Assembly: GCF_964204645.1 (NCBI RefSeq)
Contig: NC_134026.1
Coordinates: forward strand, 19,936,150 to 20,000,149
Length of the DNA stretch: 64,000 nucleotides
DNA from: Tubulanus polymorphus
Taxonomy: Eukaryota > Animalia > Nemertea
Reading direction: 5' to 3'
The translations under genes and the position numbers were made by a program. Below the pieces are notes generated by a model that was not told the DNA's origin, made no database searches, and was given only the letters and a program-made list of their open reading frames with translations. Below are positions 24,558 through 63,686 of the stretch, one piece after another; within the stretch, counting starts at the first letter, position 1, and every line of letters begins with the position of its first letter.

Positions 24558-25378
24558 AGTCTCTGGCGCCTCAAAACCAGCAGCTTGAGGTAGGTGGGGC
24601 TCCTCAGCCCAGAAAGGCAATTCACCTAGGGGAAGGAAAACCCTGAGTCCAAACCCCCACTGCCTTGTGGGATACCCGGTCTCGGGAAAGGCTTCGGGAG
24701 TCAACCCTGAGGAAAAACTGCGACTTCGTTTGAGCAACCAATTGTAAATGCCTTGCGTTTCCATTGGTTTTAGGCCTATTTCAGCGAAGTGGAGAGACAG
24801 GAGTTGCTGCATGGGTAACAGCTTCTCCCCCAGTGATACCTCATTAGGCCTATTACAAACTGGACAGTGACATCGCCTGGCGATGCTCATGGTTTCACTG
24901 AAAACATTTACCCAGCCTCGTGCACTTTATCATATTGTGCACGATCCATTGTCGGTAAATTCTGACTGGATACTATATTTCTCTAGTAACACTATATAAG
25001 TCTCACTATCAACATTAAACAGCAGTAGTGGAGACAAGTGTCCACTTTTTATGCGATGTTCCCATATTGCACGTGTTTCAAACAGCCAAGTGGAACTGAG
25101 GACTAGTTGCGGGTATCAACTTCTCCTCCATATTTATTTACCCAGACACTGGAGAGGACACTCCAGCTTCGCTCTGTAGCGTTGACTCAACACGGGAAGC
25201 AGCAGTTAACCGGTTCTAAGTCATCTGCTCAATTGGCGTAGAGTGTGACGCCAGGGGCTGCTTTTGGCGGTGGGAGGGGTCATCGCGCTCCATTGGGCAG
25301 CTACCGCCCGCCTCAAGCTGGGCAAACCCCAGCCAGTTAGGTGCTACCTCGCCACGGTCCGTTAACCTCACTGGGTGC

Positions 25379-28300
25379 GTGGGGTTTAGGGTGAAAACCG
25401 ACAGACGGTTCGTGTTCAACTGTGCACCAAGCAACTACAAGAAGAAACATTTAAAAAAACAGAAAACTGTTGCCCTTAAATTGGGCACATGGAATGTCAG
25501 GACATTGTCACCAAGTCTCCATGAAAATCTGCAAAAGACAGCAGTCATCGACTTCGAACTGAGCAGACTGCAGATGGACATTGTCGCTCTCCAGGTGACC
25601 AGGCTTCAAGGCTACGAACCTGTGAGAGAAGAAAACTTCACTTTCTACTGGCATTAAAAAGAACCAGAAGATAAGACCACGGAACATGGAGTGGCATTCG
25701 CCATCAAGAACATACTGGCGGATTCTATATCCTTGCGACGAGAGGGAACTGAACAAATTTTATGGCTCCAACACCATACCTCAGTAGGATTAGTTAACCT
25801 AATCAATGTATACGCACCAACCATTGCTTCCTCAGCAGAGGTGAAAAACAAATTCCATGATGACCTATCTAACATCATTGCCAGAATTTCAGTGAAGGAT
25901 CCATTATTCATCCTTGGTAACTTCAATGCCAGAGTTGGTGCTGACAACAACTCGTGGCCCACTTGTTTGGGTAAGTTTGGCCTAGGCAAGGCAAATGAAT
26001 ATGGGCAACGCCTGCTAGAACTCTGCTGCAACCATGAACTCTGTGTCACCAACACGTTCTTTGATGTGAAACCCCAACACAAAGGCACTTGGTGGCATCC
26101 CAGGTCCAAACGCTGGCACTAGCTGGACCTGATTCTCACCAGGTTCACTAGCTTATCAAGTGTCAAGATCACGCGTAGTTTTCAGAGTGCTGACTGTGAT
26201 ACCGACCATTCTTTAGTAGGCAGTATGGTCGAGCTCCAAGCAAAGAGAAAATACTTCTTGAAAAAGGAGGGCAGACCTTGTATTGACACTGGGGGGATCC
26301 ACAACCAGGAGAAAGTGAACCAATTTGAACATGTACTTAAACAAGCTCTCTCTTACCCAGTTGGTGCCAGTTCCTGTGAAAGATTAAAACACATTAGCGA
26401 TGCTGTGTATAATTCTGCCTTATCCACTTTTGGTAAAAAGACCTATAAGTCAGCAGACTGGTTTGAGGCCCATTCTACAGAAATGACCCCCATCGTAAAA
26501 GAGAAAAGAAATACCTTGGCTACCTATAAAGCATACCCAAGCCTGCAAAACCTGCAAAAGCTACGGTCTGCCCGGAACAAAGTCCAGCGGAGTGCTAGGC
26601 AATGTTCTAACAAGTACTGGCGGGAGCTCTGCGGTAAAATACAAGAAGCAGCTGACAGAAGCAAGATCTAGCAAATGTATGATGGTATCAAGCAAGCCTT
26701 CAGCCCAATGCATAAGAAAACTGCTCTCCTGAAGTCTCCTGCAGATAAGGCGATTCAGAGGTTGGTTGAGCATTACACCAAACTATATTCCAGGGAGAAC
26801 ATGGTCTCAGAAGAAGCCCTGAATTCGATCAACTCTCGACCTGTGTTAATGGAAGAGCTGGACACAGAGCCAACTCTTGATGAACTCAGTAAGGCCTTGG
26901 ATACCCTTACTAATGGAAAAGCTCCCGGAAAAGATGGCATCCCCGCTGAGGTACTAAAGTGCTGCAAAAAGGCCTTACTTTCTGAACTCCATGTTCTCTT
27001 GTGCCTATGCTGGAGAGAAGGTGAGGTGCCACAAGACATGAAAGATACCAACATCATCAGACTGTATAAAAAGGGGGACAGGAAGGACTGCAACAACTTC
27101 CGTGGCATCTTTCTCCCCAGTATTGTTGGTAAGTTATTCACTCGTGTCATTCTCAAGAAATTGCAAGTACTATCTGAGAGAGTCTATCCAGAATCTCAGT
27201 ACGGGTTCAGAGCAAACAGATCCCCCATTGATATGGTCTTCTCTCTCAGACAGCTGCAGGAGAAATGCAGGGAACAGGGACAGCCACTATACATCGCCTT
27301 TTTAGATCTGACAAATGCGTTCGAGCATTTGAACAGGGATGCATTGTTTAGGATTCTCCTAAAGATTGGATGTCCACCAAAACTCCTTACCATCATCAGA
27401 TCTTTCTATTCAAATATGCAGGGCACACTAGTCTCTGAAGGCCTGACCATCAACATCCAGTGTGGAGTGAACCAAGGCTGCATCTTGGCACCAACCTTGT
27501 TCGGGATCTTCTTTTCAGTTATGCTGGAACGTGCTTTTCCATCTGGCACTAAAGGGATCTACCTCAGGTCTAGGTCAGATGGAAAACTTTTCAACCTCTC
27601 CAGACTAAGAGCTAAGTCCAAGGTCCGACTGAAGTGCATTCGTGACCTCCTGTATGCAGACGATGCAGTAGTTGTTGCCCACTCAAATGAAGACCTCCAA
27701 CAACTTATTACAAGCTTCAACAATGCCTGTGATGATTTCGGACTTACCATCAACTTGAAGAAAACAAAGATCATGGGTCAAAATGTAGATTCTCCCCCAA
27801 ACATTAGCATCTCGAACGATCAACTGGCTGTTGTCCACAACTTTGTATATCTTGGCTCAAAAATCTCGGACACTCTATCACTTGATGGTGAGGTCGAGAG
27901 ACGTATTGGAAGAGCAGCTACCGCCATGGCGAGGCTGACAAAAAAAGTGTGGGCGAACAACAAGTTGACTATCAACACCAAGATTCAGGTCTATGAAGCA
28001 TGCGTTTTGATAAACCTCTTATATGGCAGCCAGTCTTGGACCCTTTATGCACGTCAGGAAAGAAAACTAAATGCATTTCACTTACGATGTCGTCGACGCA
28101 TCCTGAAAATCACTTGGCAGGATAAAGTTACAAACTACAGCATCCTAGAACTGGAATCCCCAGCATGTACACGCTGCTGAAAAAAAACGAATGCGCTGGC
28201 TTGGGCATCTACGGCGAATGGATGATGACAGGATCCCCAAGGACCTCCTCTATGGGGAGCTGTCAGAGGGAAAACGTCCACCCGGCAGACCACGATTACG

Positions 28301-28466
28301 ATTACGTTTCAAAGATGTTTGCAAAAAGGACCTAAAAGCCATGAATATCGACCTCACCCATTTGGAATCCTTGGCCATGGATCGTTCGACCTGGAGGTGC
28401 GAGATACATGAAGGTCTTTCCAGATACGAAGAATCACTTGCACTGCAGTCTGAGATGAAGAGATAG
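25379..28466 (+). pseudogene. Disrupted single APE-RT ORF of the RTE element
   Basis: ORFs 25379, 25691, 26225 and 26675 share one frame, broken by stops at 25655, 26120 and 26669; frameshift near 28150-28190. Confidence 0.9.
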
Positions 28467-34633: not shown

Positions 34634-37065
34634 CTCGAATTGATGGAAAAATCTCGAGCTTCAAGAGAAATATTACAATAAGTTGAAATTAAAGGCGAAA
34701 TAAAAGGTGTGTTCTCCACGTGCATCTACTCGATTTTCAGATAGAGATACACGTTTATAAACTTTAAAGAAGGTATTCGATAGGTTTCGTAAGGTAAAAT
34801 GAGTTTTCGAATTATTGAACAAGGGCGAACTAAGCGCCCCATCCCAGTATAAAAAGTTTCATTTTTTATTTCATAGAAAAATGAGGGATGTGTATAACAC
34901 AATCCCCTTCAATTCTATAGGAAAATCGTATTCCATCATGAAATCAGCTCAAATTCATTACACACATATATAGACAACAACACCGAATATCATCACGAGA
35001 TTTGCGGAGAAAATCTGATCGCAGAAAATACGTGACGTAAAAAGGCCGTGTTTAAAACTATGTTGTTTGGCAAAAAGGTAAATTAAAACGAAGGTGGCAC
35101 GAAGCAGATGAGAAAAACAAATCCAAGAAAAGAAGATGACGTATATTATTATATATGTTTTATCGGTACTCATGATGAAGTTTGTTTGCGTCAAAAGCGT
35201 GATACGTGTATCTCTTAATTATAGACGATGCTAAGTTTAGAAGGATAAGTTTGTAATATATTTACATGTTTGTTGCTATTTATATATAGGTGTAGTTCAC
35301 CGTTGAATTCTTATCGCAATATTATAAATGCATTTATTTTTTATCATGTATCGATCCATTGTGGTGGCTTTTTCGTGAAGAAAACGTCGAAATAGTTCAT
35401 GCAAGATATCCTAACGCGGATCACTTTTCACGGTGTTGACGATTGATAGCAAGATAGATATTTTTCACGAACACAACACACGAGAATAATGGAATCCATC
35501 GAAAAACTTCGAAGCATGGAGACATTTAAAGGCATACTTCAGTGAAAAGGTACGATCTCTAACTAAATAACTTTGGGTTTAAGAAGTTTGTTCATTATGA
35601 GTTTACTAAGTACATTCGTGGTTTTTTCCTTGCCGAAAAATGTTAGAATTACTTCCGTGAACTGATGTGTCAGCTATCTGAATTTTAATGCACTATGATA
35701 CACATATCTGACTTGAAAAAGTCGTAAACAAAGCTTCCTCGCTCCCTTTTCGGGTATATATATATTTTTATCGGACGCACGAGCTACGAAATGAACTGTT
35801 GCCAAAAACAATAGATTTAAAAGCGTGGTGAAGCACACACTGCGCAATGGTCATATGGTTGTTTACTCGTTAATTTTTTAGGTTGATTGTGTTCATTATC
35901 TTGTCTCTACTAAACAGCCATTGTTTATGATGTATTGCAACATCGGCGATTATTTGAACTGTATATATTCACTTCTATCGAAAGTTTAAAAAACGCAGGT
36001 CTATTAGGTTTTACTCATTTATTTGTACATGTAGATATATACATAATTGCGGCTCGGTCGAGGGCACTCGATGCCTTGATTCTGGCTTATGGCCAGCCCA
36101 ACACGTGGATTTTACAGGGGTTTTTTATAGTACCGTAATGAACATATATTTATATAATAAGGCCTTACGAAAACAAATCTGTGTTTCCATCTGATAAACC
36201 ATTACTCTAAAACGTTCCTTAAAGCCCATGGATAAACCTACTAAAAGTTCACTGATCCAAAGCATGTAGTTCACCTAAAGTCTACGGTTCACCTGATAAA
36301 ACCACATACGTTTTCATTTTACCCAAATACATATGTCCAAAACGAAAACGCCATTCTATCAACTTACTTACAACGGTTATTATTCAATTTTTAGGCCAAA
36401 CTTTCAAGTGGCCCAAGCTACACTTACGAGTTTAGATTCATTGATTGAAGAATACGCGGAATTCATTTAGATTCAAATTAGACTTACGACATCATAACAG
36501 TGTACAAATCGTAAATATTACGTTTCTTCAGTCGGCGATTTTTCAATAAATAAAAATGTTTATAAAACGAATACATATATATGTAACAGTGAACTGGTCG
36601 AGTCGCTTTCGCTCACTAACACAATTTCTTCAGCATTCAAAAACACTCTTCCTCCGAGTTACTCCGAGTACTCCTATTGGAAGATTATGCATCCAAGCGT
36701 GAGATTATTCGCATTTTAATCGTAAATCTCCATAGCCGGGATTCTCTTCTTTCAAATGCTTTTTACCGTCCTCGTTTATCTTAAATGCATGTTCAGTAGA
36801 ACCCGCTTAATTCGGATCATTTGGCACCAACAAAATTCATCAGGTTTATGGGAAATCCGGATTAAAAGTCATTTTCATGTATATTTATGAACAAATTGTG
36901 TATCGTTCGACTAAATTTGTGTTACCCCCTAAATTGTTCTGTTCAGTGTACATTTTTTATGCGTACATGATGATATATAAACGCCAATAATCCAGAGTCA
37001 GGACTGCGTTCTCAGTTAATTTGGAATAGGGAGCTGCACCCACACCTTCCAGTGCTTCCTTGGAA

Positions 37066-37095
37066 CATGGACTCTAAATCGTTTCATAGTCCATG
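37066..37095. mobile_element. P-like footprint, second subfamily
   Basis: CTTGGAA-CATGGACTCTAAATCGTTTCATAGTCCATG-CTTGGAA. Confidence 0.65.
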
Positions 37096-40000
37096 CTTGG
37101 AATGACCAACGCAATATATAGTCTTTGAATGCATCGAAACGGGTTAAAGAAATCATCAGTATTTTCAATGCCGCGGATATAAAAATTTTATGGGAAACAT
37201 AGATTTTCCTCGATAGCCCTCGATTGATTTATGTCCTTGCGAAAAAAAATTACGACCAAGATGAAAAAAAAGCAGAACTGCCGAACTGACGAGGCCTTGA
37301 AATGGCAATAAACAAAAGGTAGACCTAACTATAGTCCTCCGCTTTATCTTGGATTCTGTGGCTTAGTAAAACTACATCATCGACTGTTTAACTGTCCAAA
37401 ACTCGCTAATTATATTTCTAAACATACAAGGGCGGATTAGGGGGATGTGATCGAATCCCTTGAAATTCCGAATGTGCCAACCAAGTCTGGATTTTTTTTT
37501 AAAAAGAAAATGGGATGTTTAGAAATTTATCCACCTGGACCCTGGGCCAAAAAAGCCCCGCTTTGTCCAAGATCTTCTGTGGGAGAGCCACCAGAATCCG
37601 CCACCCTGGCAGCCCTCGTTTTATCAAATCTCGTATTTTCAATTGTGCCCATTACAATTTTCAGATCCACCCCTTCAAAGAATCTCAGATCCGCCCTTGA
37701 CACACGTCCTTTTGAATGAAATAGATCTCGAGTTATTTGCAGCTTAATGAATGTTAATCGCGGGGTCCCGCGTATGCGTCAATATTGCTCGCGATGGACA
37801 AGTGGCTCTGGCAAGCGAGGATCCCAGCAGGCGATTATTAAACAATCAATAATCAATTCCCTCGTTACCGAACGATTAATCTTCTAATTATCGCATGTGG
37901 AGTATAGCGACGTCGACCGCGAACTGTCAACACGATCGCCACTCGGATCCGTGTTTACGAACCCTTGTTCCGACAGGTGATTACATAACGTTCCCCGCTG
38001 GTGGATTATCGGTTCGTCCCCGATGAACCGTTGTCTTGTCAATACCGGCTCCTCAAGTGGTTTGTAATACGTATTATGTGCCGTTAGGCAAGCATCTGTC
38101 CGCTGATTGAACATAATTGGCGCCTGGTTTCTGACAAATTAATCCACGCTGGTTTCGCGACTGGCCTCTAATTGCCTTATGAAAACAATGATATAACCCG
38201 GTTACAAACCGTCTATAATGAAACACGTGCACTAAAGATGCCGCTGAAAAGCGCCCGGTGAGATCCAACAAGGAGTCCCATTGAAACTTTGATCAATTCG
38301 ATTTGTATTAGTTCTATTGGGTAAATACGTTACAAATTTTGTTTACGAGATTTGATGGAGGCTTAAGTGGTGCTTGGCGGCCGCCACGAAAACTATCTAT
38401 TATGTCAAATGTATCGATACCACTGCGAAACACAAATGATAGTTTTTATAGTTTAGTACATTGTTTGCATTTTCAGTCGCGAAAAGAATGGTTTTAGCGT
38501 TACGTGTAAATGTATGAAAAGAGCCTATGTTTCTCCGTATCGGCCGGGCCATTTTTTAAACTTCGATAACATCTGCAATCAGTTCAGTTCTGCCAGCATC
38601 ATTTAGAAAAAGTAATGTACATGGTAGATAGGCGGCCGGCTGGGTCTACTTTTTAACTCAACAGTAATGATAACATCATACCATTTTTGCCTGTATTTGT
38701 TCAAATTTGAAATTTTAGAAATATACATTCATTTATTTTTTTATTCATTGGCCACGGCTGAATCGTTTCTGGCAAGAAATGTGAAAAATGTATTCATAAA
38801 AATTAATTCCTGAAACAAACAAAATGTATTTACACTATAATACATCTACTATTTGTCCAAAATTATAATCGTTGGGAAATTAGACATGAAGATGTTCTGG
38901 CTAAAATCTTATTTTTGTTCCTAATTTGTGTAGCTTTTCAATTCTTTTGACCGAATTACTTTCATTTCCGCGTAATACAGAATGACGCGTCGATAAACGA
39001 GCGCGCTTTTGAAATTTTATGAACGTGCACCATGCGGAAAAATAATTTTTAGCCGCCTTTGATAACATCGCTGCGCGACCGAACGCTCGACGAGTTTAAA
39101 CGAGCTTAATTTCGCCGTCATTTTCATTCTTTGATACATAAAGAACGGGCAATTTGCATTCTCTGGATCTAGACGGCGAAGCGCCCGGAGGCGCACGCTG
39201 CGCGCATCACTTAATGCATTATTATCTCCGATCGGCCGGCAAATCTCGGAGCGCAGATTCTACGGCGCGAATTCCACTCTCATCGGTGAATGATAATTAC
39301 CGCCAGAAACAAACATCACGCCGCCGGCCATAAAAAGACAGACGACAGCGCGCGGAAAAGATCGCGCCCCGACGCAACCGTATTTATCTTTCCGTTCGAC
39401 AGCACAATGCGCCTGCAGACGACTTATTGCCTTCCCGCTGTTCCGGACACGATTTCATTTCCTTTTAAAATCGGTTAAATGACGAAGGCAATTAGCGGAA
39501 TTTGTCCGAAAAGACCGATGAAAATAAATCTCTTGTTTGTCAACGATCATGCGATGGTTATCAAACTAGCTTTTTTATTTTGAAATAGGGATTGTCCCTC
39601 TTGTGTATTTGACCGATTAATTAATTCGGATTGATTTGAATGTTGTGTCCTGCCGGGAGCGAAACAGGGGGTTTGATTTTGAAATCGGAAATCGAAATAC
39701 AGATCGAGTTCAATGAATTTCTTTTTAAACGAAATACATGATTGGAAAGTAAGCTTTTTAACAGGAAAATTTACGACCAAATACTATTTCCCTAGACAGT
39801 CGATTTTTTACCTAAATAGATTAATTTGAACCCGTGCCAAAAGAATAACGTAGCATCAATATGATATCAGTCCATCCAAAATTTCGTTAACAAAGTGTAA
39901 ATTTGCGTCGAATGATCGAGAAAATGCCTTGGAACAAAAAGCAGAAAAAGCAATTGAAAAGGGAAAATTCTAGTACAGAAATGGTTTAGAAAAAAAAATT

Positions 40001-42758
40001 GCTGTTGAGCTTGTACATACTTTGATTAGTTATAGAAAGCAGTTTATGTGCGATGTTTTAAAACATTTCAAACGCACGAATATTAGAATTGGTTCAATAA
40101 TTAAACGTCAATGTGTAGGCTAAAAAATCCGGTTCATTTTTCAAAAACAAGTATTAGTACAGGGTTGAAAGGCGACCGGCCGGGTCAACTGTAAAGCTAA
40201 GACAGAAAGGAGAATCAATTGGTATCAATTTTTACCCTACAATCGGGTAAATGCTCATCGTGTTCGACTTTAGATACCGTTGCAATGTTATCGAGATTTA
40301 TCGTTTATTGAATAAATATTAACACGGAATTGACAATGAAAACTCGCATCCTTAATCGTTGCGTTTAATGTGCTATAGAGCACCACGCCTTCGCAACGAT
40401 TTTGTTCGAATTCGAACAAAAATATTTGCGCGACAATAATTATGAATACACTTCTTCGTTATTGTGCCAATTTGTTGCGTAATTCGCCGAATGGTCCCAG
40501 TTTCACCCGGGCGTGATTTACCCCGACAGAAAATGAAATATCAACATTATTCAGGCGCTTAAATGCGTCCTTTTCAAATCCGTTAAATCAATAAGCGATA
40601 ATTCTATTGCGATCACGGTTTCTTGTGTCTTTGAATTTGTCGTCGTTACGAAAACACCGCCGCGTCGAAGATGAGTTGCCATAGTTATGTTGCAATCGTC
40701 AGACAAATGCTTCGAATGAAATATCTGTATTTGTTCAAGGGATTTCGAATTCCGCGGCGCGGAGGGACGCGAGGATTTAGGTTCTCGCCGAACACAAGTC
40801 GCGTGACAACTCTTGTTGTTACAATTACTTAAAATCCATGTTTGATTTCGAATCAAAAGGCTATTATTCGTGTCGTGATGAAATGGGTCATTATACTAAC
40901 GATTCTAATAAGTAGTGAAACGAATCACGAATATATTTGCTCATTCATCTTTAAAGAAAATATTTCGTTGCGTTGCGTAAGATATATAACAGATTTTTCA
41001 TAATGTTTATTTTGTTTAAAGAAAAACATTGATAATATTTCTTCATTTTCTCATATGTAACGAGATGTAATGAGAAATATTTTCTATCCATCTTAAGCGG
41101 TTTATTGTGGCCCTACACGGTAGATGGGATTCGTTATACAGACGCAATGTCCATAAGAATATAGATTCGTATTTCAAAGAAATCTTCAACTAATCGTAAA
41201 TTTATTACTCGCGCACGTTTTCCGCGCAGGAATTCCATTTTTGCAGTGTGGATGAATACCGAAATTAGTTAGAAAGATCGTAGCATCCAATCAAATACAA
41301 AGATACGATACGATAGGAAATACGACGAATAAAAAAGTTTTTAAAAACATTTTTGCATAATATAATGCAGCCATTTTTAGAAATAGATTTGAGAAAGATA
41401 GGGAAACCGTGTTAATTTCATGTTAATTTATGCGGTATGTTTTATTTCATCATCGCATGACAGTTAATCAACTGTTTTTTTCTGCGCGCGCATTGTTTCT
41501 GCAGCACCCTCGACGTTCTGTTAGTTCACGAGTTTACCTCATGCGGTCGAACTTATCACCTCCGCAGACAACAACAAAAAACAACAAATCACCTTTCCCC
41601 CTCATCTGGCAGAATAATCCCGGGTAAAAAAAACCAACCGCTTACTCAGCTGAACACGAGACCCGTAAAAATAGGAACCTTGCCAAAATCATTCCGACGT
41701 TTGAAATCTTGCGTTAAGTCGCCTTCACAGAATAGGTTTTAGGGGATCTCAGGCTGCAAAATCTAGGGGAGGGAATTGTTCGTGTTCGAAAGTTCCTTTT
41801 GTCAGGGTATAGTATTGGCACTGCTTTCAAGAGTCCATTGCATACTGTGGCTCGTCTCGTCACCGTTCGGAGTCAATGGTATACGACGGCCAAGGACCTG
41901 GTAGAGAGCCGGGTTCCTGCGAGTGAACCTTTGATCATTTTATTATTTGATAAGTAGTTATTTCCCTATCCCGTACTTAGCTTCCGACCTGTCCAAAGTT
42001 CGATTCGACATCGGGTTCACGGGTAGGTGCAATACAGTATCCCCAGAAAGGCTAACCACAAACAATGCACAAACATTCAGTTTATCCTTATAGAGTAATC
42101 TTGATTACCACTCCAAGAATTTTCCATCATGTTACTGTGGTTGAAAAAGCTTGTGAAATCCTCACCATTTTCACTTCCTTCTTCAAACTTATCCACTCGG
42201 TTACGATTTTTTTTTCGTTTTTATATCAGGGTCATCCTTTTATAGCGTTGACAAACTGACTATATAAGCGGTATTTCTATTCGCAATCTGTACCGCGAAC
42301 GAAAATTCAAGGTCGTCGTAAATCAACCTTGCCGGTTTTATTCGTACACGCTGCGATTCGGTTTATTGCATCATATGTATACATGCGGCTTGATAAAGAG
42401 TTATAAAAACGTCAGATGAAAAATCAGGGCCGTCGGCTATGTGTACATGTGTTTATATACTCGCTTCGAACATTGTCTTTATCATCGCGATATTAGATAA
42501 AAATAAAAACCACTTCCGTAATCGAACCTGATCCGATTCCGATAGAATTGTGCCTCGAGATACCGCAGGAATATACTGAAGTGTGTCGTAATATATAAAT
42601 CCATATTCATTTATTTTTTCATCGTTATTATGATAAAATATATATATGTATATGTATTCGCGATACCGTTTTGTATACGTGTAGTAACATGCACATATAC
42701 TACACACGTTCAAAGTAAATATGTATCGACAAAAATTCATAGAAGAATTTTCGATATC

Positions 42759-42773
42759 AATAATAATAATAGC

Positions 42774-42851
<78 letters not shown>
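42759..42851. repeat. (AAT)n microsatellite
   Basis: ~31 AAT units with two interruptions. Confidence 0.97.
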
Positions 42852-42852
<1 letters not shown>

Positions 42853-43204
42853 TACAAACTGAGATCATCAAACATTGTCTGTTTTCAAAGAAATGGAACA
42901 ATATTCAAATGGAATTTGTATCTTAACTTGGAATCTGCCTTGAAAGCGTGTATCGATTTTTTTTTAAATCAGTACGTTGAAACTTGATGTGTAATCGGTT
43001 TGAATACTTCGAGTCTTATAACCTGGTACATTGATATCTAGTCAGCGTTAAGGTTCCGTGTGAGTCGATGTGCACTACTTAAATAGATTTCATAACTCTT
43101 ACTTCATTTTTGATAAATTTTAGTAGTAATCTTTGAAAGGATGTGCTCTACGTCATTAATACATCAGGGCTAGACTGGTCGCCGTAAATCCAATTCAATT
43201 ATCG

Positions 43205-46200
43205 ATATATTCAAATCCAAAATAACTTTATTGATCCTTGATATTACATAAACCATATCATATTATTTATCGTCGACAATATTAAGCAATATACGTGTTA
43301 TTTTTTAAGGCGTCAATACACTTTCAAATTATTTTCTTTTTTTTAAATACTAAAAAGAACTACTGCAGATTCCAAGTTGCGCACGTGATATACAAACATA
43401 AAGGAATACAATGCCAAGCCAAGAAGACAATCACGCTGATGATGACGATAACAGTTATAGTAATGATATCTATAATATGTATGATATAAAAGAAAAACAT
43501 ATAAATTAGACAATGGAAAATGTACAATAACAAAGTGATCATTATAGATAATATTCAATTAGTTTTTAATACACAATTTTTGATTGTTGCTGCTCAGAAA
43601 TCACAAATCATCAGAATATGATAATAATATTTTTTTCATTCACCGAGTAATTAGACCCTACAATCAAGAAAATTCATCATTCGATTTAATAAATAATATA
43701 TATACTTCATATATGCACCGTTTAAAAAGTATTGATTACAAAAACACAAGTTATATGATTTTTCATGAGTGTATAATTTTTTCTGAATATCTTTTCGATT
43801 CTCTCTAAATCAAAAAACGATTTCTTTAACAGTTTCAGTTCTTAAAAATCCAGTTGCGACGATTGGAGAATTCGTCGGAAAGAAAATATAGATTTCTTGA
43901 ATTACAAATCCCTAGAAAATAATGTTTTCTCAGAAAATTTTACGTTGAATTTTACATTTTTCGCATAAATATACAAGCAATCCGCTGAACACAAGCTGAA
44001 CACAAGCCGGTCATTCTTAAGTACATCATGAACACAATGAGTGGCGGAAGAAAAAGTCTGGCTATAGTCCAGAATATCAAAATATGAATCTTGTTTTGAA
44101 AATAACGTTTACGAAATAAAAACGCCTTTTTAGAAATGATATATTATCAAAACAATTCGTCAGTATTGTAGAAAAAGGATTCGATTCCATTTTTTTCCGA
44201 AACCCTTTTTGATTTTGTTGATTAGGTTCAAATACGAATTTATAGAAAGAGATAAAATTTTCAGATTCTGTGACATATTCCTCAGTGACTTTTTATCTAT
44301 GGTCGATGATCTACACAGCGCTACAAACAACAAAGGTAGAGGGGGCACACAACGGACATAACGAGTAACTTCAAAATAAACTTTTGCCTTCACGATGAAC
44401 TTTTCTCATCGGAAAAGGTTGTGCGTAAATATTCGCATATAGCATTCCCACGTAATCGGGTTGTTCAGTGTGAAACACCAAATATGTCTTTCACATCTCA
44501 CACAGTCATGTTCTCCGTGTTCGGGAATTTGAGATCATTGGAAAACTATTACATCAACGGTCAAAGTGATCCAAAAACTAAATTTCTGAATGTCAAAATT
44601 TTCGATGCTCTTCAATTCAACTATCAGTTCAGGCCCGTGCCGAGGGGGGTTCGGGGGTAGCGAACAAACACCCTAAAATTTGGCCCATCAAAAAGTCAGC
44701 GTCAAAAATTTGGGTCACGATTTTTGGATACAATGTTCATGTTTTTCCGCCTTTAAACCCATTCTTAAATGATTTATCCAGGTACCCAGACTTTGAGTGT
44801 TCAATAGGAAAGCGTCCCTTTTTACGATGGTGAAAAAGTGTCCTTTTTCTTGAAATATAACTGCCCCTTAAAAAAAGCTCGGCAAGAGCCTGTGCTGTTT
44901 TGCAATAAAGAAGAATCTTACGCGCATGTTCACAGTATTCAACGAGAGTTTCCTACACAGACTACCATATTTTCTATGAAATTAGAAGAATAAATACGAG
45001 TAATTTATCTCAATAGTTAACACAAGAGTTAAAGAATATAAGTTTATATGTATGTAATATGTATATACAGAAAAATATCGACGAAAAGAATATCTATAAC
45101 TTACGTTAAAAATCTACCCTACGCCATTTCAGGTATAATCGGCATACAAAGTCAGAACAAAAAAATAAATCAATAAATGAGGTATTCATGTTTTTAACTT
45201 AATAATACAAATCAATCATTAAAAAACGTACGAATTAGTGCTAATTTAATTAAGTACGCGTCATTTCACCCCCGACGACGAATTAGAAAAGCGACGATTT
45301 GAAAGAAGAAAAAAAATAGAAAATCATTTTGAACTTCTTTTTCGTTATCCTAACAGTAGGAGGATATAGTTCGGGATTTCAACCCAATCAAAATAGATGC
45401 TTAATTGTCGGATTTTCCACTTACGCAGCTTAAGTGAACGAAAATTAGATTTAGAAACAACTAAACGAAAATGGAACAAATACGAAAATTTGATCTTCGA
45501 AGCGGGTGGAATAGTGCTAGAATTTCCACGAACAACTACGCGTAACAAATCCCGAAAATATGTAAATAAAAAAAAAACGAAACTCGGTATATATGTGTGA
45601 AAAGAAATTTGTAGATTTCTTCAATGAAGTGTTTGTAAAATTTAGTTCACCGGTGTGACGGCTGCTCGAGGAGCTGGCTGGCAAAGTTACAGATAGATAG
45701 ATTCTTTTGTGGTTATTGCACCCGGCAATAATGATAGAATATTTTATCAAGCGCATATCTGGGTGTTGACTTTCAAAACGGTATCCCCAATATCAACTAT
45801 TAGCGCGCGTTATGTTTTGATACATATATATATGTATATATATACCATGTGACTCGCGTACTCTTAGATTATTTGTTCTTATGTACTAATTATCTTATGT
45901 AGAAATCCCTTCAATAGTCATCTTTCTTCTATCACATACATTCGAATTCACTAAGAGAACAAAAACCTAACGACGGCCTGTGCCATCGAACCGAAAACAT
46001 AGTTCTCACATACGTGCATCTCCTGTACTTTCTCGCGCCTTAGCAATGACTCAAGCCATCGGTCGAAGGGATTAACGAAAAAAAAAAAACGTTTTCTAGG
46101 TAATGTTAGGATTTTGAGGTTTATCCATAAGCATTCAAATGCACACCTGGTAACCACTTACCTTCGGTAAAACACAAAATCCCCAGTACGAACATATTTA

Positions 46201-47067
46201 GTTCTCCCATATAGTTAATGTGCTGACTGAAGTATTTTCGTTGTTTAGATACATATATGCAAGAATGTGGTCTGTACAAAGATCAAGAGGTTGCATGTAT
46301 ACGTATATTGAAACGTAGCCTTTAGATATAGCATCTATTTTCTGTAATCTAAATTCAAGCCATTAATATACATTTATTGAGTTCACGGTTTTTTACGGTG
46401 TATGCAAAAACTATGCAAAAACTACCAAAAGAAAAAATTCTCTCAAATCCTTTTTCTAGATATTATCCACAGTTGTAACATTATTAGATGTTTCGCAGTT
46501 CCAGAAGTGCCGGGATACAGTTTTGCGGAGAGTTAGCTGAAGTTTCCGGGGGAAGGCGCAGACACTAATTGCAAAAACAATACTTCTTCAGAGTCACGAA
46601 AAAATGTTCCATTTGATCGATTTCACGATATACACTTACATGACACCGCTTAAACGCACACAAGTTCGCGCAAATTACCATCGTCCGTACGCACAGTCAT
46701 AATCACGCCAAAAAAATACGACACTACACATTTCGCTAGACACAAAAATAGTATTGTCAGTTTTTTTTTTCAGTTATGAATCTTTGCGTTAGAATTCCAC
46801 GGCATATACATACATATATATGAACCCTGGGTTTCCGTTGAGTTTCGATTGAGTTTATGAATAACTAATTTGCTTGATGATGACACGACGAGGTAGATTT
46901 TTTAATGTTTTCTCTCTATCGTCTTCTCTCTGGGACTTCTCGATGATGCAACGTGACGTCACGAGACACCAGCTAATTCTCACAGACGACTTTCGGCTTG
47001 TGCCAGTCCACAAGGCGTAGTGGTCGTCAAAAATGATTCCGCTCACCAAAGTTCGCATCGTCAAAAC
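43205..47067 (-). other. Predicted long 3'UTR exon of the BH3-only gene (may extend to ~42320)
   Basis: U-rich on the minus strand; AATAAA at 43227-43232, alternatives at 42362-42367 and 42337-42342; several miRNA seed matches on this strand. Confidence 0.45.
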
Positions 47068-49972
47068 CTGAAATTGTACAAACATAATGTTTTTTTTTAA
47101 ATCAAGTTGGAATGAACGAATGAAATTATTTGCAAATCCAGGGTTTGATCTTTGCGCGCGTAACAGCCGGGATGCTGGCGACGGCAATTTGCTAATTTAT
47201 TGTTCGAACGGGTTTATTGTTGTTTGCGACTAAACCAATAATTGCTCGTCAAATTAAACCCTTTAGAATCACCTGCGCCACGTGCGAGCGTTGTGAAAAC
47301 ATCGCCGTGAGGACAAAAGGGATTATTGCAAAGTTAATACGTTTCTAATTACGGAAAGGACAATGGGAACCCACTTAAAGCGCCTTGATCAAAATGATGA
47401 TGATTCATTGAGAATTCTTTTCCTAAGTGGCAATGAATGCCATCGTATTTTTTCTAACAAGTGTCAGAATTTTTATCAACCACACACCACTGATCTAGGG
47501 TCGATTCTAGATCCGTTCGAAAGCGCTTTCAAATGGTTTTTATTTGCGACGTGCTCTGCGCATCTTAAAAAAAACATTTTATGTTTGATGTATTGTATGA
47601 ACTGTGCGTATGTGTGGTAGTTAGATGTAGCGGATATCTCGATTCCGAGAAGGGTTCAATCGGTCGTGTGTATATGCCTTACAACTCATTCGTCTGCGCG
47701 GATCGTCAAATCGATTTTCAATCTAAATTATGCATGTACCAGGAAGATGAGCCCCTGCGGATTACAGCTGATCGTAATTCTTCGACGGGAAAAGGCAAAA
47801 GGTCAAAAAATTTATTTACAACACCTAAGCCTTTCGGTTTGTAAACGACATTAAGTTGACAAGCGCGTGGGTGATATAGTCCGGTATAAACAAGATACTA
47901 TTTTTAGGTCTGTTGACCCCGGTTGAGAACAATTATGATATATTGTCTTATTTTGAGTTCAATGATTTAAATAAATTTAAATTTAAATAACGTTTAAAAA
48001 CGAAAGATATGTACGGTATTTTAGAAGCGGATCCAGAAGCCAATTTTGAAGGACTTGTCACATCCTAAAAGGGAACTTTGATATGCAAAAAGGTAATAAC
48101 GTACTCCTGAACGGAGGGGTTAATTTTGAAGAAATGTCAAGTCCCACAAAGGAACTTGTGTCCATAAATGTACCCATTATCTTTGATGGCAAAACGGAAT
48201 TGGAAAAATTGTTGGACTTGTACAAGTCTCATAAGTCTCCCTGGATCCGCCCGTGTTTATATTTGCAACGAACAAACTGTCAAAATGGATAAAATGATTA
48301 TATATAACTAAGCCTGTTATATTTAATGTAGTCATTAGCATCCGTGTGTGTTTCTATCAAGGCACGCGTGTGAATATGCTATTCTAGCCATATTAATGAC
48401 GCATTACGCAATATTTATATATATGTAGTCAAAGCAATTATCATTCCGGGTGCCAGAATGTTCGTCTTGATGACCGAACGAATGACTTCCGGGAATGACT
48501 TCGCTCGTGTAAGTTTGTAGTGCGCAACTCGTAACACCTTATTTCTGGTCATGGTTTAGAGTAAAAATTTGAATACATGGAACCAAAATCGTCTTATGCT
48601 GACTGGTCTTGTATCAGGGCCGTCCTAGCATTTGAATTTCGTGGGGGCGGGGGGGGGGTTTGAGGAACCCTCAGATTTATTTATTTCCGTTCGCAGCCAG
48701 AGCCCGGAAAAGGTCCGCATCTTTTAGTGCTGAAATTTTTTGAAAGCTATTTTATCGATTCAGTATTCGTTGAATAAATATCCGTTCTCATTTGAAACGC
48801 GTTTTTAAACCATAAATGGCCTAAATCTTCTGAACAGGGACGTCCCTGGTTGTCCGATAAATCAATTGAGGCTACGAGGTTAGTAATCACTTAAATCTAT
48901 CCACTTCAGAAATGAACAGCTACTTTACTCCTGCATTGCGTAATTACAAAACAAATTTGATTGTATCTTGAATAATCCCAGTGGATCTCCGGTCCCAAAG
49001 TCCCGTTCTAAAGTCTAGGTCACTCTAAAAGACGACCAGTTCTTGAATTGTTATAAAATCTGAACACTGGAAACGGACCATGGACTTCTAGTATACCTGC
49101 CAATATTTAGTTGGTCAAAACTATGTCCACTAAAACTGCACTTCCGAAGTCCCAATTCGAATTGATGCATGCAGCACAATGTACATATATTTGGCTTATA
49201 TTGATTGCAAAAATTGCCCAATCAATCCGTTTGATTAGCTGTTGTTGTTATCGTTCTACCTGATAACCCATACATGTCACGAAATAGAGATAAGATACGA
49301 TTTTTTTCGTGTGATTTCGCAACGCAGCAATTGCACGAAAAGACCTTTGCGAAAACGAACTTTATCTTTTGATAGATTTGGTGATTTGGGAGAAAAATTT
49401 GTTAATTATCGCATCTTTTATGTTTCATTTCCAATATCCACCATGTGGACCTCCGGTCCCAAAGTCCCGTTCTAAAGTCTAGGTCACTCTAAAAGACGAC
49501 CAGTTCTTGAATTGTTATAAAATCTGAACACTGGAAACGGACCATGGACTTCTAGTATACCTGCCAATATTTAGTTGGTCAAAACTATGTCCACTAAAAC
49601 TGCACTTCCGAAGTCCCAATTCGAATTGATGCATGCAGCACAATGTACATATATTTGGCTTATATTGATTGCAAAAATTGCCCAATCAATCCGTTTGATT
49701 AGCTGTTGTTGTTATCGTTCTACCTGATAACCCATACATGTCACGAAATAGAGATAAGATACGATTTTTTTCGTGTGATTTCGCAACGCAGCAATTGCAC
49801 GAAAAGACCTTTGCGAAAACGAACTTTATCTTTTGATAGATTTGGTGATTTGGGAGAAAAATTTGTTAATTATCGCATCTTTTATGTTTCATTTCCAATA
49901 TCCACCATGAGCCACTAGTATCTGAATTCGGTGTATCAAAACTCAAAATATATGTATATATTAAATTCTTAC
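47068..49972 (-). other. Predicted 3'UTR intron of the BH3-only gene
   Basis: TGA-AG|GTAAGA donor 2 nt after the stop (49972); candidate acceptor TTTGTACAATTTCAG|G at 47068. The donor is well supported, the acceptor is inferred. Confidence 0.55.
48981..49909. repeat. 464-bp near-perfect tandem duplication
   Basis: 48981-49444 repeats at 49445-49908; the identical spurious ORFs at 49242 and 49706 are 464 apart. Confidence 0.95.
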
Positions 49973-49974
49973 CT

Positions 49975-50352
49975 TCACAGTTTGTTGGTGAGCAGATAAT
50001 AGTATAAAGCAATTCTGCCGACTAGTTTAAGAGGGTGTAGAAGTTTCCAACCAATGCGTAAGACGATTTCCCTGGTAAGCATGGACAGAATGATTTTCCT
50101 ATTCAGCACGAGCGGTGCTAGTTTCCTGTTGACATCGATCTCGTCGCCGATCGCGCGCAGACGAGTAGCCAACATCCGAATTCTTACGAGTTCTCTGCTT
50201 TCCGAGTTCGGGCAAGTAGTATCCACGCCGCCGTTTGTCGTAGGAGCAGCATTGGTATCGTCTGTGGACGATATCGGAAGACTTAACAACAACATCGCAT
50301 CCTCCGTTTTCTCGTTTTGCAAACAGCCGTTCGGACGTGTTGGACGACACAT
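49975..50352 (-). CDS. BH3-only pro-apoptotic protein (BIM/EGL-1/HRK-like), 125 aa, single coding exon
   Basis: BH3 consensus L-A-x-x-L-R-x-I-G-D-E-I-D (aa 61-73, 50134-50172) after a low-complexity N-terminus; basic/hydrophobic C-terminal tail (KLVGRIALYYYLLTNKL); no BH1/BH2; ATG in AATC-ATG context with an in-frame TAG 12 nt upstream; promoter motifs upstream. Confidence 0.8.
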   Translation of the reverse strand: MCRPTRPNGCLQNEKTEDAMLLLSLPISSTDDTNAAPTTNGGVDTTCPNSESRELVRIRMLATRLRAIGDEIDVNRKLAPLVLNRKIILSMLTREIVLRIGWKLLHPLKLVGRIALYYYLLTNKL

Positions 50353-50600: not shown

Positions 50601-51859
50601 AGATATGGCATAATACCAAACTCAATGCGGCATCACTTGTTGGAACAATACGCGCGCGACGACGGCACCTGTAGTAACTAAAGCTAGTTATCAATACCCG
50701 CCTGCTCTCTGGTGGTTAATTACTAGAAATGTGCCGATATTCCCGGAACAGTGGCAACCGAGGTGGCTAGATGCCAGATCGAGTTTCCTAGCAGGCAAAT
50801 GATTCAGACCGACTCGGGGATTAGGAAACGACGACGCCGAGCTAAAGGGAATTTAGCAATTGATGTACCGAGTATACTCGCGCGAATTAAGACGAAGCGC
50901 CCGTTAGGAATGCACTCGATGCCGAAATTCACGGAGAAAATGCTTAATAGAATTAGTTATATTTTGAAACAATAGGCACCCTCGCGCACCCAGGTCACTG
51001 CGGAAATTTGTGATTGAAGCAAATACAGAGAAACGACAAGGCGGCGTTCGCAATTGGAGGCTTGTCTCTGGATTCCTTCATAGGGCTTTTCGTAAATTTC
51101 CGGGCCGGACTAATGGAAAACACTTGGAATCACCATTTGAGCGAAAGACCTCAGTTTAAAGATGTGTTTCTGTTTGGAACACGCTCACATTCCTGATAGT
51201 GCAGTTTCCCCGATGCTCCCGGCAGGTGTAGTCGCCAAGGGAATAAAATCAAATGAGTGATCTACCAATCAAATGAATAACAAGGTCAATCCCTATTCTA
51301 AGATCAAAAAAGATTTATGGTTTCAAAAGCTATCGAAAAATAGCGAATTTTGACAATTCACGCCGAGTCCATATTCCAACCAGTCCTATATTGGACTGAT
51401 GCTTTTAGTAATGTTTTGATACACTTGAAAAGAATTGTTTTTAATGAATCTGGAAATCACGGCCGTATCGGGCAGCGCGGGTCTGGAGCCGCACATTGAC
51501 GGCATTGCCATTAGGGCGGCCGTTGGATCGCCGTCGCAGCAGCCGGCTCCGTCCGTGAATTATAAATTCCAACTCAATTTTAATGGAAACCAGCCCAGAT
51601 GTTTCCAGTGATTTTTTTTATAATCAAAAAATTGATTAGAGTAAAAGAATATTACCGGAACCGACCCCCCGGACTGATCCATCGAGCTTGTGTCGATCAA
51701 ACTTGTGGAGCGGGGGCCCGATCCGCACTTTTCTGCGAAGAGTGGATGGAGAGTCCGTGATTCTTTGTTTTTAAAAAGTACATACAAAAGAATATAGAAA
51801 TTATATGGATATGGTAGATTTCTAATAGAAGTGCCGACGGTTTGAGTCCGATGGCAACG

Positions 51860-52160
51860 GCCGTGGCATTCCGGTAATTCCGCGAAAATTAAGAAAGCAC
51901 TGGATGGTGCTGCCACCACCAGCCCTCCCCACATTACTTATGTCCCTTATTCATATACGCGCGTACAATCCGCCAATTTCAATCAGGGACATTTACACTG
52001 ATAGTTATCAAGTACATAACACCTTAAATTATCCGAAGGAAGTCTTAATTCTATGAACTCATATTGATTAATTTTGTTTCTCGAACTTTTTAGTTGCCCC
52101 AAAAAAAAAATTTAGCAAGAAGTTGCTGTTTGTGTTTCATCAGTTCAGCCCAGGTCAGTT
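51860..52160 (+). promoter_or_regulatory. Probable DNA2 promoter with E2F-type sites
   Basis: TTCCGCGAAAA (~51878-51888) and ATCCGCCAATTTCAA (~51968-51982) resemble E2F/CHR elements; Inr-like TCAGTT (~52139) followed by CAG|GTCAGT donor; fits an S-phase gene. Confidence 0.4.
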
Positions 52161-53115
52161 AGTGTGATTAGCAGTTGTTAGCAGGTTAGTAACCTAATCG
52201 TTGGTGGTAAGCTTTTTATAATCGGATGGGCTTATACCAATACTTATGTCATTTGTGAAAATATCCGATCGTGTAACTAAACCACAGACAGGTTACTAAC
52301 TAAGTCTAAGTAGGCTTCATCATCATTATCTTGTATCTTGTCGTGTATCATAGTCTAATTCTGCTGGTATTCAGATGGACAGAAGTGGCTGTCGTGACTT
52401 TTTATGTCACATATGATCCGATTGTGAGATCATTTGGCTGCCAATTGGTTGCCGTATGTACTAACTAGTAGTAGTAGGGCCTACCTACAAGAAGCACACG
52501 ATCAACAACGTACTTTCTGCTGTGTCATTTTCACAATCAAGTAATTTTCCGTGTAACTTCTATTCTATTAATTATGGATTGTTAGTACTGCCGTATTGTT
52601 CCTGATATTTATTATTTTATCCCTTTCAATTTTGAATGGTGTCATAATATTTTTGATAGTATGTCTAAACTACTTGATTGTACAAAAACAAAACTGTTCT
52701 ATAGGCCTAGCATTATACTGAAAAATGAGGTTTTGAATTGATTTGATGCGTTGGAGTTTGGGGTCAGATCTTTCAATATCCCAGCCACTACCACATGGGC
52801 TCGTATTAGAAGTTTGGGGATGAACTATTGCTTAGATCATCCAATATCCGAGGTACTACCTATACCGCATATATACACTCCGAACAACGAGCCCCTGTGA
52901 TGTGAGACGGGTGTTGAGACGCTTCTGATCATTTGGTATTTGAATGGCTATAGCTTTCACTGTGGCTTTAATCTTCCCTAAAATTCACTTATGGCTTTTT
53001 TATACCGCTTTAGGCTGGATGAAATATGTCCCATGCCGTTGTATGGATTTCAAGCTTAAGAGATTATGATCCCAAAATAATGTGAGCCTAAGATTCTACA
53101 AACAATGAAAGCAAT

Positions 53116-62100: not shown

Positions 62101-63686
62101 ATACCTTGTTTCTCCGCTCTGCTGAGCTTAAATGTTGACCCGGCCGGCCGCCTATCTACCCTATACATTACTTTTTTTTAAATCGTGATCAATTTTACCA
62201 TAACAGACCCGGCCGGTATAGAAATGAACTGTTTATAAATTTTATCATATTTTACAAAAATGACCCGGCCGCTGCGGAGAAACAAGGTATCATTTTTGTT
62301 TAGCCTAATAATTAGGTTTTATTGCCCCTAGCCTATATTTCTTCGTCTCTCCTTGGGTAGAAATACCCTCCGACCCACTGTACTACTCAGTGTTTAGCAG
62401 TCATCTATCATTTGCTCATGGGCGTGGATCATTTGCTCATGGGTGTGGAGAAGGGCGATGAATGCAAACTGTCTTGCCCAGGGACTCTACATGTAGTACT
62501 ACACTGATTTCAAACCCCCAAGAGTGAAAGTTATACGAAGTCAGTGTTTTTGGGGAAACACTGTATGATCCAACGTTCTTTTTTCAGAGATCTGCGAAAA
62601 TACTCCGATTGGAAATCGATGGTGTTCCGCATCGATAAATGCGATTACTACAACTCGATGGGCAGTAATTTCAATAATGTGTCGAAACTAATGGAAGACA
62701 CCCCCGTTAGGTAAAATCAGAAATGGATAAAAATCGATTTCACGGTTCCATCCTCAATTCCCTGCATTACTTACTAATCATTTTAGTTGTACTTTTTGAA
62801 CAGCGCTAAACTCCGAGAATTGGTCATTGATTTGAGAGTGCCTGAATTCAATCATGTCCTGCCTAAAACTGACATTGCCAAAGGTATGAAATTCTATATG
62901 AAGGTATTTTATTTGGCAAGTGTGGATGACGCTTTGAACTGTTCACTTTTTTTTGCAGTGAAGCATATTTTCAAATTGTTGAACAAACCACAGAAAACTG
63001 CTGTTTTAAAGGTGGGTCTTTTGAATCATTTAGACGATAGTTTCTAGAGAATATTGTTCGTAAGTTCCTGGCGTCGGTTTATAGACTGGTATTATCCTGG
63101 GGGTTAACTTAATTCATTTTCAATTGAGTTAACCAGTTAACCCCCTGGTTTGAGTTGTTAGCAGTCTATAGAATCGGCCCCTAGGTTTTGGATCTAACCC
63201 TCAAAGTTGGAAATTTTTTTGAATAAGACCACCAGTCCAGAGGAATCAATTGATTTCGAAAGAAATCTTCCCTGTAATCTAATGGCTTTGTTTCATCTCT
63301 TTTACCAGGTCTTGATGTGCAGAGATTATGTGCTAATTAAAGGCTACCCTGGAACGGGTAAGACATCCACTATTGTTTCATTAGTCAGGGTTCTATCCGC
63401 TATGGGTTTGTCTGTTTTACTGACCAGTTATACTCACTCTGCTGTTGACAATATTCTGCTCAAAATGACAAAGGTAATTTGGCATTGTTTGATTGTTCAC
63501 AACATCGCAACTCCTTATAGTCCAAGATCTTTTATGTTATGTACTTCAATTTCGTAGCATAAACTGGATTTCTTGAGACTGGGAAGGTTAGAAAGAATTC
63601 ATCGCGATATACAGCAATTCTCCGCTGAACATTTGACGAAAGATATCAACAATGTAGCCGATTTAGAAATGTTCTACGCCTCAAAG
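53116..63686 (+). CDS. DNA2: DNA replication ATP-dependent helicase/nuclease DNA2 (multi-exon, 3' end beyond window)
   Basis: GT-AG exons read by eye: 53116-53154, 53989-54051, 54601-56204, 56870-56956, 57048-57119, 57325-57486, 57687-57711, 57799-57861, 58066-58151, 58404-58598, 58948-59080, 59189-59306, 59694-59850, 59920-60102, 60558-60665, 61425-61556, 62588-62710, 62804-62883, 62959-63011, 63309-63473, 63558-63686. Motifs: [39 protein letters not shown] (PD-(D/E)xK nuclease), [10 protein letters not shown] (Fe-S), GYPGTGKT Walker [12 protein letters not shown] (SF1B motif Ia). Confidence 0.95.
53989..54051 (+). CDS. DNA2: DNA2 63-nt exon carrying PIP box QTRISKFF
   Basis: Strong polypyrimidine acceptor TTTTTGCAG|, donor CAG|GTTAGT, phase 0-0; translates [21 protein letters not shown]. 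Confidence 0.8.
54601..56204 (+). CDS. DNA2: DNA2 large exon encoding ~535 aa S/T/P/D/K-rich disordered N-terminal extension
   Basis: Stop-free 1604-nt exon bounded by TTTCAG| and |GTGAGT; phase 0 in and phase 2 out, matching the neighbouring exons. Confidence 0.85.
60925..61130 (+). mobile_element. Penelope-like inverted-repeat remnant with degenerate hammerhead motif, in a DNA2 intron
   Basis: ~50-bp inverted arms (ATAAATGAAGAAATCCC.../...GGGATTTCTTCATTTAT) around CCAC-TTGATGA-TGGCTGTT-aaccc-AACAGCT-GAAA-tcgt-GTGG (61030-61072). Confidence 0.5.
62086..62305. mobile_element. Kolobok-like MITE in a DNA2 intron
   Basis: TTAA-GGCTAAAA...ATACCTTGTTTCTCCGC / GCGGAGAAACAAGGTAT...TTTAGCC; related pieces at ~16912-17200, 38520-38690, 40117-40240. 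Confidence 0.65.
62345..62520 (-). mobile_element. Degenerate tRNA-derived SINE remnant
   Basis: Minus strand GGGTTTGAAATC (B-box-like) followed by GTCCCTGGGCAAGACA, a common SINE core motif. Confidence 0.45.

Follow-up and report, generated by a model that had tools for sequence, protein, structure and literature searches.

In Drosophila, bantam acts through several partial sites on hid, whose product is an IAP antagonist and not a BH3-only protein. This repression of a pro-apoptotic gene is cited in PMC5322734, a study of the 3'UTR of egl-1 in C. elegans. There, miR-35 is the main repressor and miR-58, of the bantam family, only enhanced miR-35 repression; a reporter that was wild-type apart from its mutated miR-58 site showed no detectable change (PMC5322734). 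The first-pass annotation of the locus described below had leaned on egl-1 as a target of the miR-58/bantam family: the site does exist, but the precedent is weaker than claimed, since the site has no effect alone. Another BH3-only mRNA, BCL2L11 (BIM), is extensively paired to the anti-apoptotic miR-221/222, according to PMC10899785, where validated triggers of target-directed miRNA degradation (TDMD) are described as typically having 3-11 unpaired nucleotides that break g9-g10, with exceptions. Finally, near-perfect complementarity through g10-g11 is found in two endogenous slicing targets of bilaterians, miR-196/HOXB8 and C. elegans miR-249/ZK637.6, both experimentally shown and the latter conserved, as presented in PMC4206712.

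We report a 21-nt site in a 64,000-nt stretch of DNA (the window) of the ribbon worm Tubulanus polymorphus that resembles each of these systems in part (Table 1). Like egl-1, the host gene, here by prediction, belongs to the BH3-only class and has a bantam-family site in its 3'UTR; like hid, it would be a pro-apoptotic target of bantam; like BIM, its mRNA would pair extensively to an anti-apoptotic miRNA; and like HOXB8 and ZK637.6, the complementarity runs through g10-g11. It differs from egl-1 in that the UTR has one near-full-length site and in that no sequence homology to EGL-1 was found, from HOXB8 and ZK637.6 in being predicted and in having a guide bulge at g12, and from validated TDMD triggers, in which g9-g10 is typically open (PMC10899785), in that g9-g10 is paired.

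Table 1. Coordinates of the main features of the locus, numbered from the first letter of the window
Feature	Position	Strand	Remarks
Predicted BH3-only protein, 125-aa ORF	49975..50352	-	BH3-like motif, Atlas leads
Intron, GT..AG, 2,905 nt	47068..49972	-	begins 2 nt past stop codon
Last exon, about 3.9-kb (3,871-nt) 3'UTR	43197..47067	-	X2 contigs
Bantam-complementary site on minus-strand mRNA	44530..44550	-	8mer seed, t1 = 44530
AATAAA polyadenylation signal	43227..43232	-	about 30 nt before contig cover ends
Putative GT..AG intron of antisense transcript, 14.4 kb	35550..49980	+	one contig end

Read directly from the window, the plus strand of the site is TGAGATCATTGGAAAACTATT. Bantam-3p, UGAGAUCAUUGUGAAAACUGAUU, becomes identical to it once g12 and g20 are removed (two edits; 21/23, with two one-base bulges). 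RNAduplex paired g1-g11, bulged g12 and paired g13-g20, with g20 as a wobble, at -24.6 kcal/mol, or 73% of the -33.8 kcal/mol of a perfect target. Four further mature variants, taken from metagenome hairpins, gave a duplex of identical shape at -23.8 to -25.4 kcal/mol, so that the shape was preserved in 5/5 variants tried. The mRNA strand offers a perfect g2-g8 match and t1A, the canonical criterion for a target (8mer), and in all five variants g9-g11 are Watson-Crick paired, covering the scissile t10-t11. The 3' pairing amounts to seven Watson-Crick pairs plus the wobble, or to ten with a second bulge, and pairing to about g16 is interrupted by the one-base guide bulge at g12. Both the near-full-length complement to lophotrochozoan bantam and the pairing proposed in the first-pass annotation (nt 1-11, a bulge at nt 12, then most of the 3' half) are thus confirmed. 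The 21-mer is real and exonic, complements bantam to an unusual extent and belongs to the 3'UTR of a probable BH3-only gene.

The site is the only bantam seed site of that UTR, lies mid-UTR, is of median accessibility (53rd percentile) and forms an AU-rich duplex. No variant is listed within the 21 nt in the X1 and X2 contigs, which is uninformative at densities of 10/1,372 and 6/2,889. Two more bantam 8mer seed matches occur on the minus strand of the window, at 42859-42866 and at about 52424-52431; the former is about 330 nt beyond the end of contig cover and could sit in a longer 3' isoform.

The commonest mature sequence, UGAGAUCAUUGUGAAAACUGAUU, is printed for bantam-3p of the snail Biomphalaria (PMC12261956, PMC7328434) and is carried by the brachiopod Lingula and by Bantam-2 of the annelid Platynereis, according to the supplement of PMC12257675, which places the node of origin of bantam at Protostomia. 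It can also be read in a metagenome hairpin (L047) that Rfam scored as bantam. The scan for the bantam pattern that supplied such real hairpins as controls covered 43/64 metagenome parts, with 300-nt flanks, and returned 118 loci; its 42 no-insert matches are mostly bacterial-looking by GC. For nemerteans, in which DICER1 is present (PMC11114477), the part of the literature covered by our search held no bantam sequence, although one may exist, and the supplement of PMC11114477 has no bantam entry. In the PMC12257675 supplement, positions g9, g10 and g20 differ among the bantam paralogues of lophotrochozoans. The same source shows Lottia bantam departing at g9 and the dominant Platynereis paralogue (Bantam-1; 788,425 reads vs 18,670) carrying a G at g10. 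Judged by eye, both variants place a mismatch at the cut position of the site and would block slicing. A given target site could thus be open to slicing with one paralogue and form a loop with another.

The site very likely lies within the mature 3'UTR of the BH3-only-like gene. One X2 contig (depth 38.8, short side 38 nt) joins 47065 to 49971 across the intron, over most of which X2 cover is 0-6x, and the last exon is covered by contigs at 46820-47065 (38.8x), 46203-46818 (45x) and 43197-46087 (46.6x), with unbridged gaps at 46088-46202 and 46819. The third of these (2,889 nt) spans the site, placing it 2.5 kb into the exon and 1.3 kb before its end. X2 is a run of unrecorded kind, from one sample and with unstranded contigs, which we treated as RNA because of its GT..AG joints in DNA2 and in the BH3-like gene and because of the missing intron cover. 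The predicted 3'UTR, and the exonic position of 44530 in it, are hence supported by the spliced contigs. Another AATAAA lies upstream of the site, at 46378, and could give rise to site-less isoforms.

That the host gene is BH3-only is a prediction, given a Pfam match below cut-off, Atlas leads, a low-confidence model and no relatives found. Residues 65-73 of the ORF (LRAIGDEID) are BH3-like, with the conserved Leu and Gly-Asp. Pfam gave BID alone, at an E of 0.12 and under the cut-off, and no Bcl-2 match at E<=1. Among the 10 ESM Atlas rows shown, nine had BH3-only families or names (PXT1, BMF, BIM, BIK and NOXA) and one had no common family; scores were 0.78-0.89, all under 0.9, and count as leads only. 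The single-sequence structure model (low confidence, pTM 0.25) consists of coil at 1-52 and one long helix, the N-terminal half being predicted as disordered and the C-terminal helix as hydrophobic/basic. A GRIAL stretch close to the C-terminus is, by eye, BH1-like. The protein collections searched contained neither homologues nor the exact sequence, and the best PDB match had an E of only about 1. BH3-only proteins are described as poorly conserved and difficult to detect in protostomes, and their genes as polyphyletic (PMC8998228, PMC11463336). The gene was possibly missed by annotation, though its neighbour DNA2 was annotated. The two are head-to-head (spliced joints of DNA2 from 53152), and the identity of DNA2 is clear from its exon 63309-63473, whose 55 aa are 100% identical to the Tubulanus polymorphus DNA2-like protein (NCBI), and from its long exon, which matches that protein in 536/536 aligned residues. 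A frameshift by which a 70-codon frame at the beginning of exon 2 would continue the ORF is unsupported, as X1, X3 and X4 contigs are gapless over the ORF end.

The locus also appears to be transcribed in the opposite direction. A 26-nt loose end of an X2 contig, at 49979, matches 35522-35547 exactly. We rejected a reading of the joint 35547/49979 as a minus-strand isoform that skips the site, since its splice ends are canonical only on the plus strand (donor 35550, acceptor 49980); no long frame runs across it. This single contig end points to a putative antisense transcript, spliced and apparently non-coding, across the BH3-like ORF, with its upstream part in 35300-35549 and a downstream exon that begins at 49981 and overlaps the ORF. 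Its acceptor is 8 nt away from the sense donor, and its intron covers the site in miRNA-sense orientation.

That orientation bears on a different reading, in which the plus strand would hold a bantam-like small RNA gene, hosted by the antisense intron and fully complementary to the BH3 mRNA. Besides the intron that appears to span the site, a weak 17-bp stem with 44481-44501 forms when a 76-nt fragment is folded in isolation (-13.6 kcal/mol, z -0.72). This stem is lost in a 110-nt context, where the fold is unlike that of real precursors: 2.9 mature bases are expected to be paired upstream, against 16-21 in eight real precursors, and z is +0.2 against -2.3 to -6.5. Rfam found no family at gathering score over the whole window, and its bantam model (RF00727) had no match to 44300-44800 at E<=10, while 8/8 control hairpin loci matched bantam or mir-81 at 36-67 bits. 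A covariance model built from 12 precursors gave 16 matches in the window at E<=10, none of them at the site. By Rfam, the custom model and folding the site is not a bantam precursor, and a small RNA gene of this kind is very improbable. These results uphold the initial view of the site as a target and not the gene, and its companion statement that the flanks form no hairpin is broadly right, save for the weak stem of the isolated fragment.

The upstream flank nevertheless leaves a weak hint of another kind. Of 332 local controls, 97-98.5% are less similar to real 5p arm/loop regions than its 55 nt are (p about 0.015-0.03, which is not independent of the pairing test), and 23/729 random upstream pieces pair equally well. 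It is possible that the site arose by decay of an inverted precursor copy, the mature part of which was then selectively retained. The same hint can be read as favouring the absence of any function, the site being either a chance match or a neutral remnant of a bantam precursor that was long ago copied in inverted orientation. In such a neutral remnant, however, 21/23 mature bases would not have survived opposite an arm so decayed that two covariance models fail to recognise it.

As for chance, dinucleotide-shuffled miRNAs were required to have a perfect g2-g8 anchor and <=2 edits. None of 184,203 reached this in the 3,871-nt UTR, and 18/61,401 did so anywhere in the 64-kb window on both strands; the energy of the site was equalled by 1/17,614 shuffled miRNAs in the UTR and by 70/17,614 in the window. 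A Markov estimate of the match is about 1.3e-6 (3/526,291 per seed site, multiplied by 0.22 expected seed sites per UTR). The match is therefore far past chance for this UTR and strand. For any one miRNA, the window contains an equally good match in 0.03-0.4% of cases, so a large scan across many families yields some such matches; assuming about 100 miRNA families, the window-level chance rises to about 3% when scored by edits and to about a third when scored by energy, and the match is only moderately rare. The case for a function rests on the identity of the miRNA as bantam together with the right strand, the exonic position and a gene class previously tied to the bantam family. Because this last link was spotted post hoc, we retain a site devoid of function as an unlikely explanation and not a negligible one.

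We judge it quite likely, from pairing and placement, that the 21-mer would serve as a functional bantam target. The mechanism we propose, at a little short of an even chance, is that bantam slices as well as represses the mRNA of the predicted BH3-only death gene. Bantam-loaded Argonaute would pair g1-g11 in an unbroken run, with only g12 looped out, and would cut the mRNA between 44540 and 44539, alongside repression. The outcome would be a sharp switch, by which cells with high bantam irreversibly clear the death mRNA. Here we infer that the bantam of this species is identical to UGAGAUCAUUGUGAAAACUGAUU, that its miRNA Argonaute has retained catalytic activity, that the encoded protein kills cells via Bcl-2 binding and that the site pairing is used in vivo. 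Slicing fits the geometry better than TDMD does because g9-g11 is unbroken and validated triggers usually have a central loop; of the three outcomes initially offered for the site (high affinity, slicing or TDMD), it is the best by geometry, and TDMD is less supported. Single target deletions at t11-t15, which create solvent-facing guide loops, are reported to be tolerated in AGO2 slicing (PMC10338343, citing another study), and the t12 deletion falls within this range and so counts for slicing.

Other observations pull the opposite way. A mismatch at g12 strongly lowered knockdown for most of ten siRNAs, and guide bulges were under-represented in siRNA-like off-targets, according to PMC13293674; PMC13486602 ties AGO2 activation to contiguous central pairing, with g2-g16 tested. 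As far as PMC4206712 describes them, near-perfect sites in C. elegans are without association to degradome signal, and miRNA-directed cleavage is rare in bilaterians. The g12 break, the AU-rich duplex, the mid-UTR position, the median accessibility, the g9/g10 bantam variants and the possible site-less isoforms count against slicing. The broader proposition, that bantam slices a lophotrochozoan BH3-only mRNA and so puts apoptosis in a bilaterian under plant-style control by cleavage, is tentative and somewhat doubtful.

The same considerations lend weight to a canonical high-affinity site, at which bantam would promote deadenylation and inhibit translation, with slicing a minor activity and the miRNA itself spared from decay. 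The rarity of cleavage in bilaterians (as given in PMC4206712) and a g12 break that may blunt slicing (PMC13293674, PMC13486602) agree with it, as do the 8mer and the g13-g19 pairing. It leaves unexplained the paired g9-g11, unnecessary for canonical sites, and we regard it as rather unlikely. In line with repression, the UTR also has 7-8mer seeds for the miR-92, miR-36, miR-2 and let-7 families, although the 12 seed motifs sought had 8 sites against 4.4 expected, which is not significant. The miR-36, miR-92, miR-2 and let-7 matches are at 45653, 45720, 45936, 46895 and 45184, all on the minus strand; the 7mer at 45653, for the miR-35/36 seed, is a further likeness to egl-1 with its miR-35 sites.

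The first-pass annotation had gone further and envisaged a mutual-destruction circuit, in which the death-gene mRNA acts as a TDMD trigger and drives ZSWIM8-dependent destruction of bantam. The precedent is real: BCL2L11 triggers decay of miR-221/222. RNAs with central pairing can on occasion do likewise, above all when the AGO does not slice (both as described in PMC10899785). The canonical architecture of seed plus extensive 3' pairing is present in the site, with 7-8 bp of 3' pairing, whereas the 3-11 nt central loop is absent; the looser CLASH filter set out in PMC12573233 (>0 nt central bulge) would accept the site. The common bantam sequence leaves no loop at g9-g10, and the 3' pairing is short and AU-rich. 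Fully paired targets are reported to recruit ZSWIM8 weakly (PMC13083262), and in the model of PMC13486602 the centrally mismatched route alone is proposed to end in TDMD. Bantam served as an unchanged control in Dora knock-out Drosophila S2 cells, according to PMC10102002 and PMC12573233. Since the site pairs g9-g11, where triggers are typically open, the circuit is less supported than first thought and looks distinctly improbable as the main activity. A paralogue with G at g10, of which Platynereis Bantam-1 is an example, would by eye leave g10-g12 as a central loop and pair g13-g20. That geometry is trigger-like, and for such a paralogue the site could become a trigger that destroys bantam.

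Slicing, our preferred mechanism, gives a single-nucleotide prediction for this mRNA, namely 5' ends at 44539, and makes the site a test of in vivo slicing with a naturally occurring g12 guide bulge. The part of the literature covered by our search had no case of slicing by bantam, of cleavage of a lophotrochozoan BH3-only mRNA or of any endogenous slicing target in a lophotrochozoan, although an earlier report may exist. If the site is functional, bantam would control pro-apoptotic genes in flies (hid), nematodes (egl-1) and a spiralian; three lineages with genes lacking detectable homology would then point to repeated recruitment. If slicing itself is true, bantam control of death genes would reach a third protostome lineage, through an apparently unrelated gene.

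Some other features of the window were recorded. Within the sense intron, 48981-49744 is a tandem duplication with 464-nt spacing, reported at 100% identity over 300 nt, which is either a recent duplication or an assembly artefact. Upstream of the ORF, an X2 contig extends past 51284 with letters that, by eye, correspond to about 52094-52120; splice signals are absent, and 51285-52093 is probably a repeat insertion, about 0.8 kb long and polymorphic. On the plus strand, 25220-28466 is a LINE-type retrotransposon with several stops, in which Pfam recognises a reverse transcriptase (RVT_1, E 5e-33).
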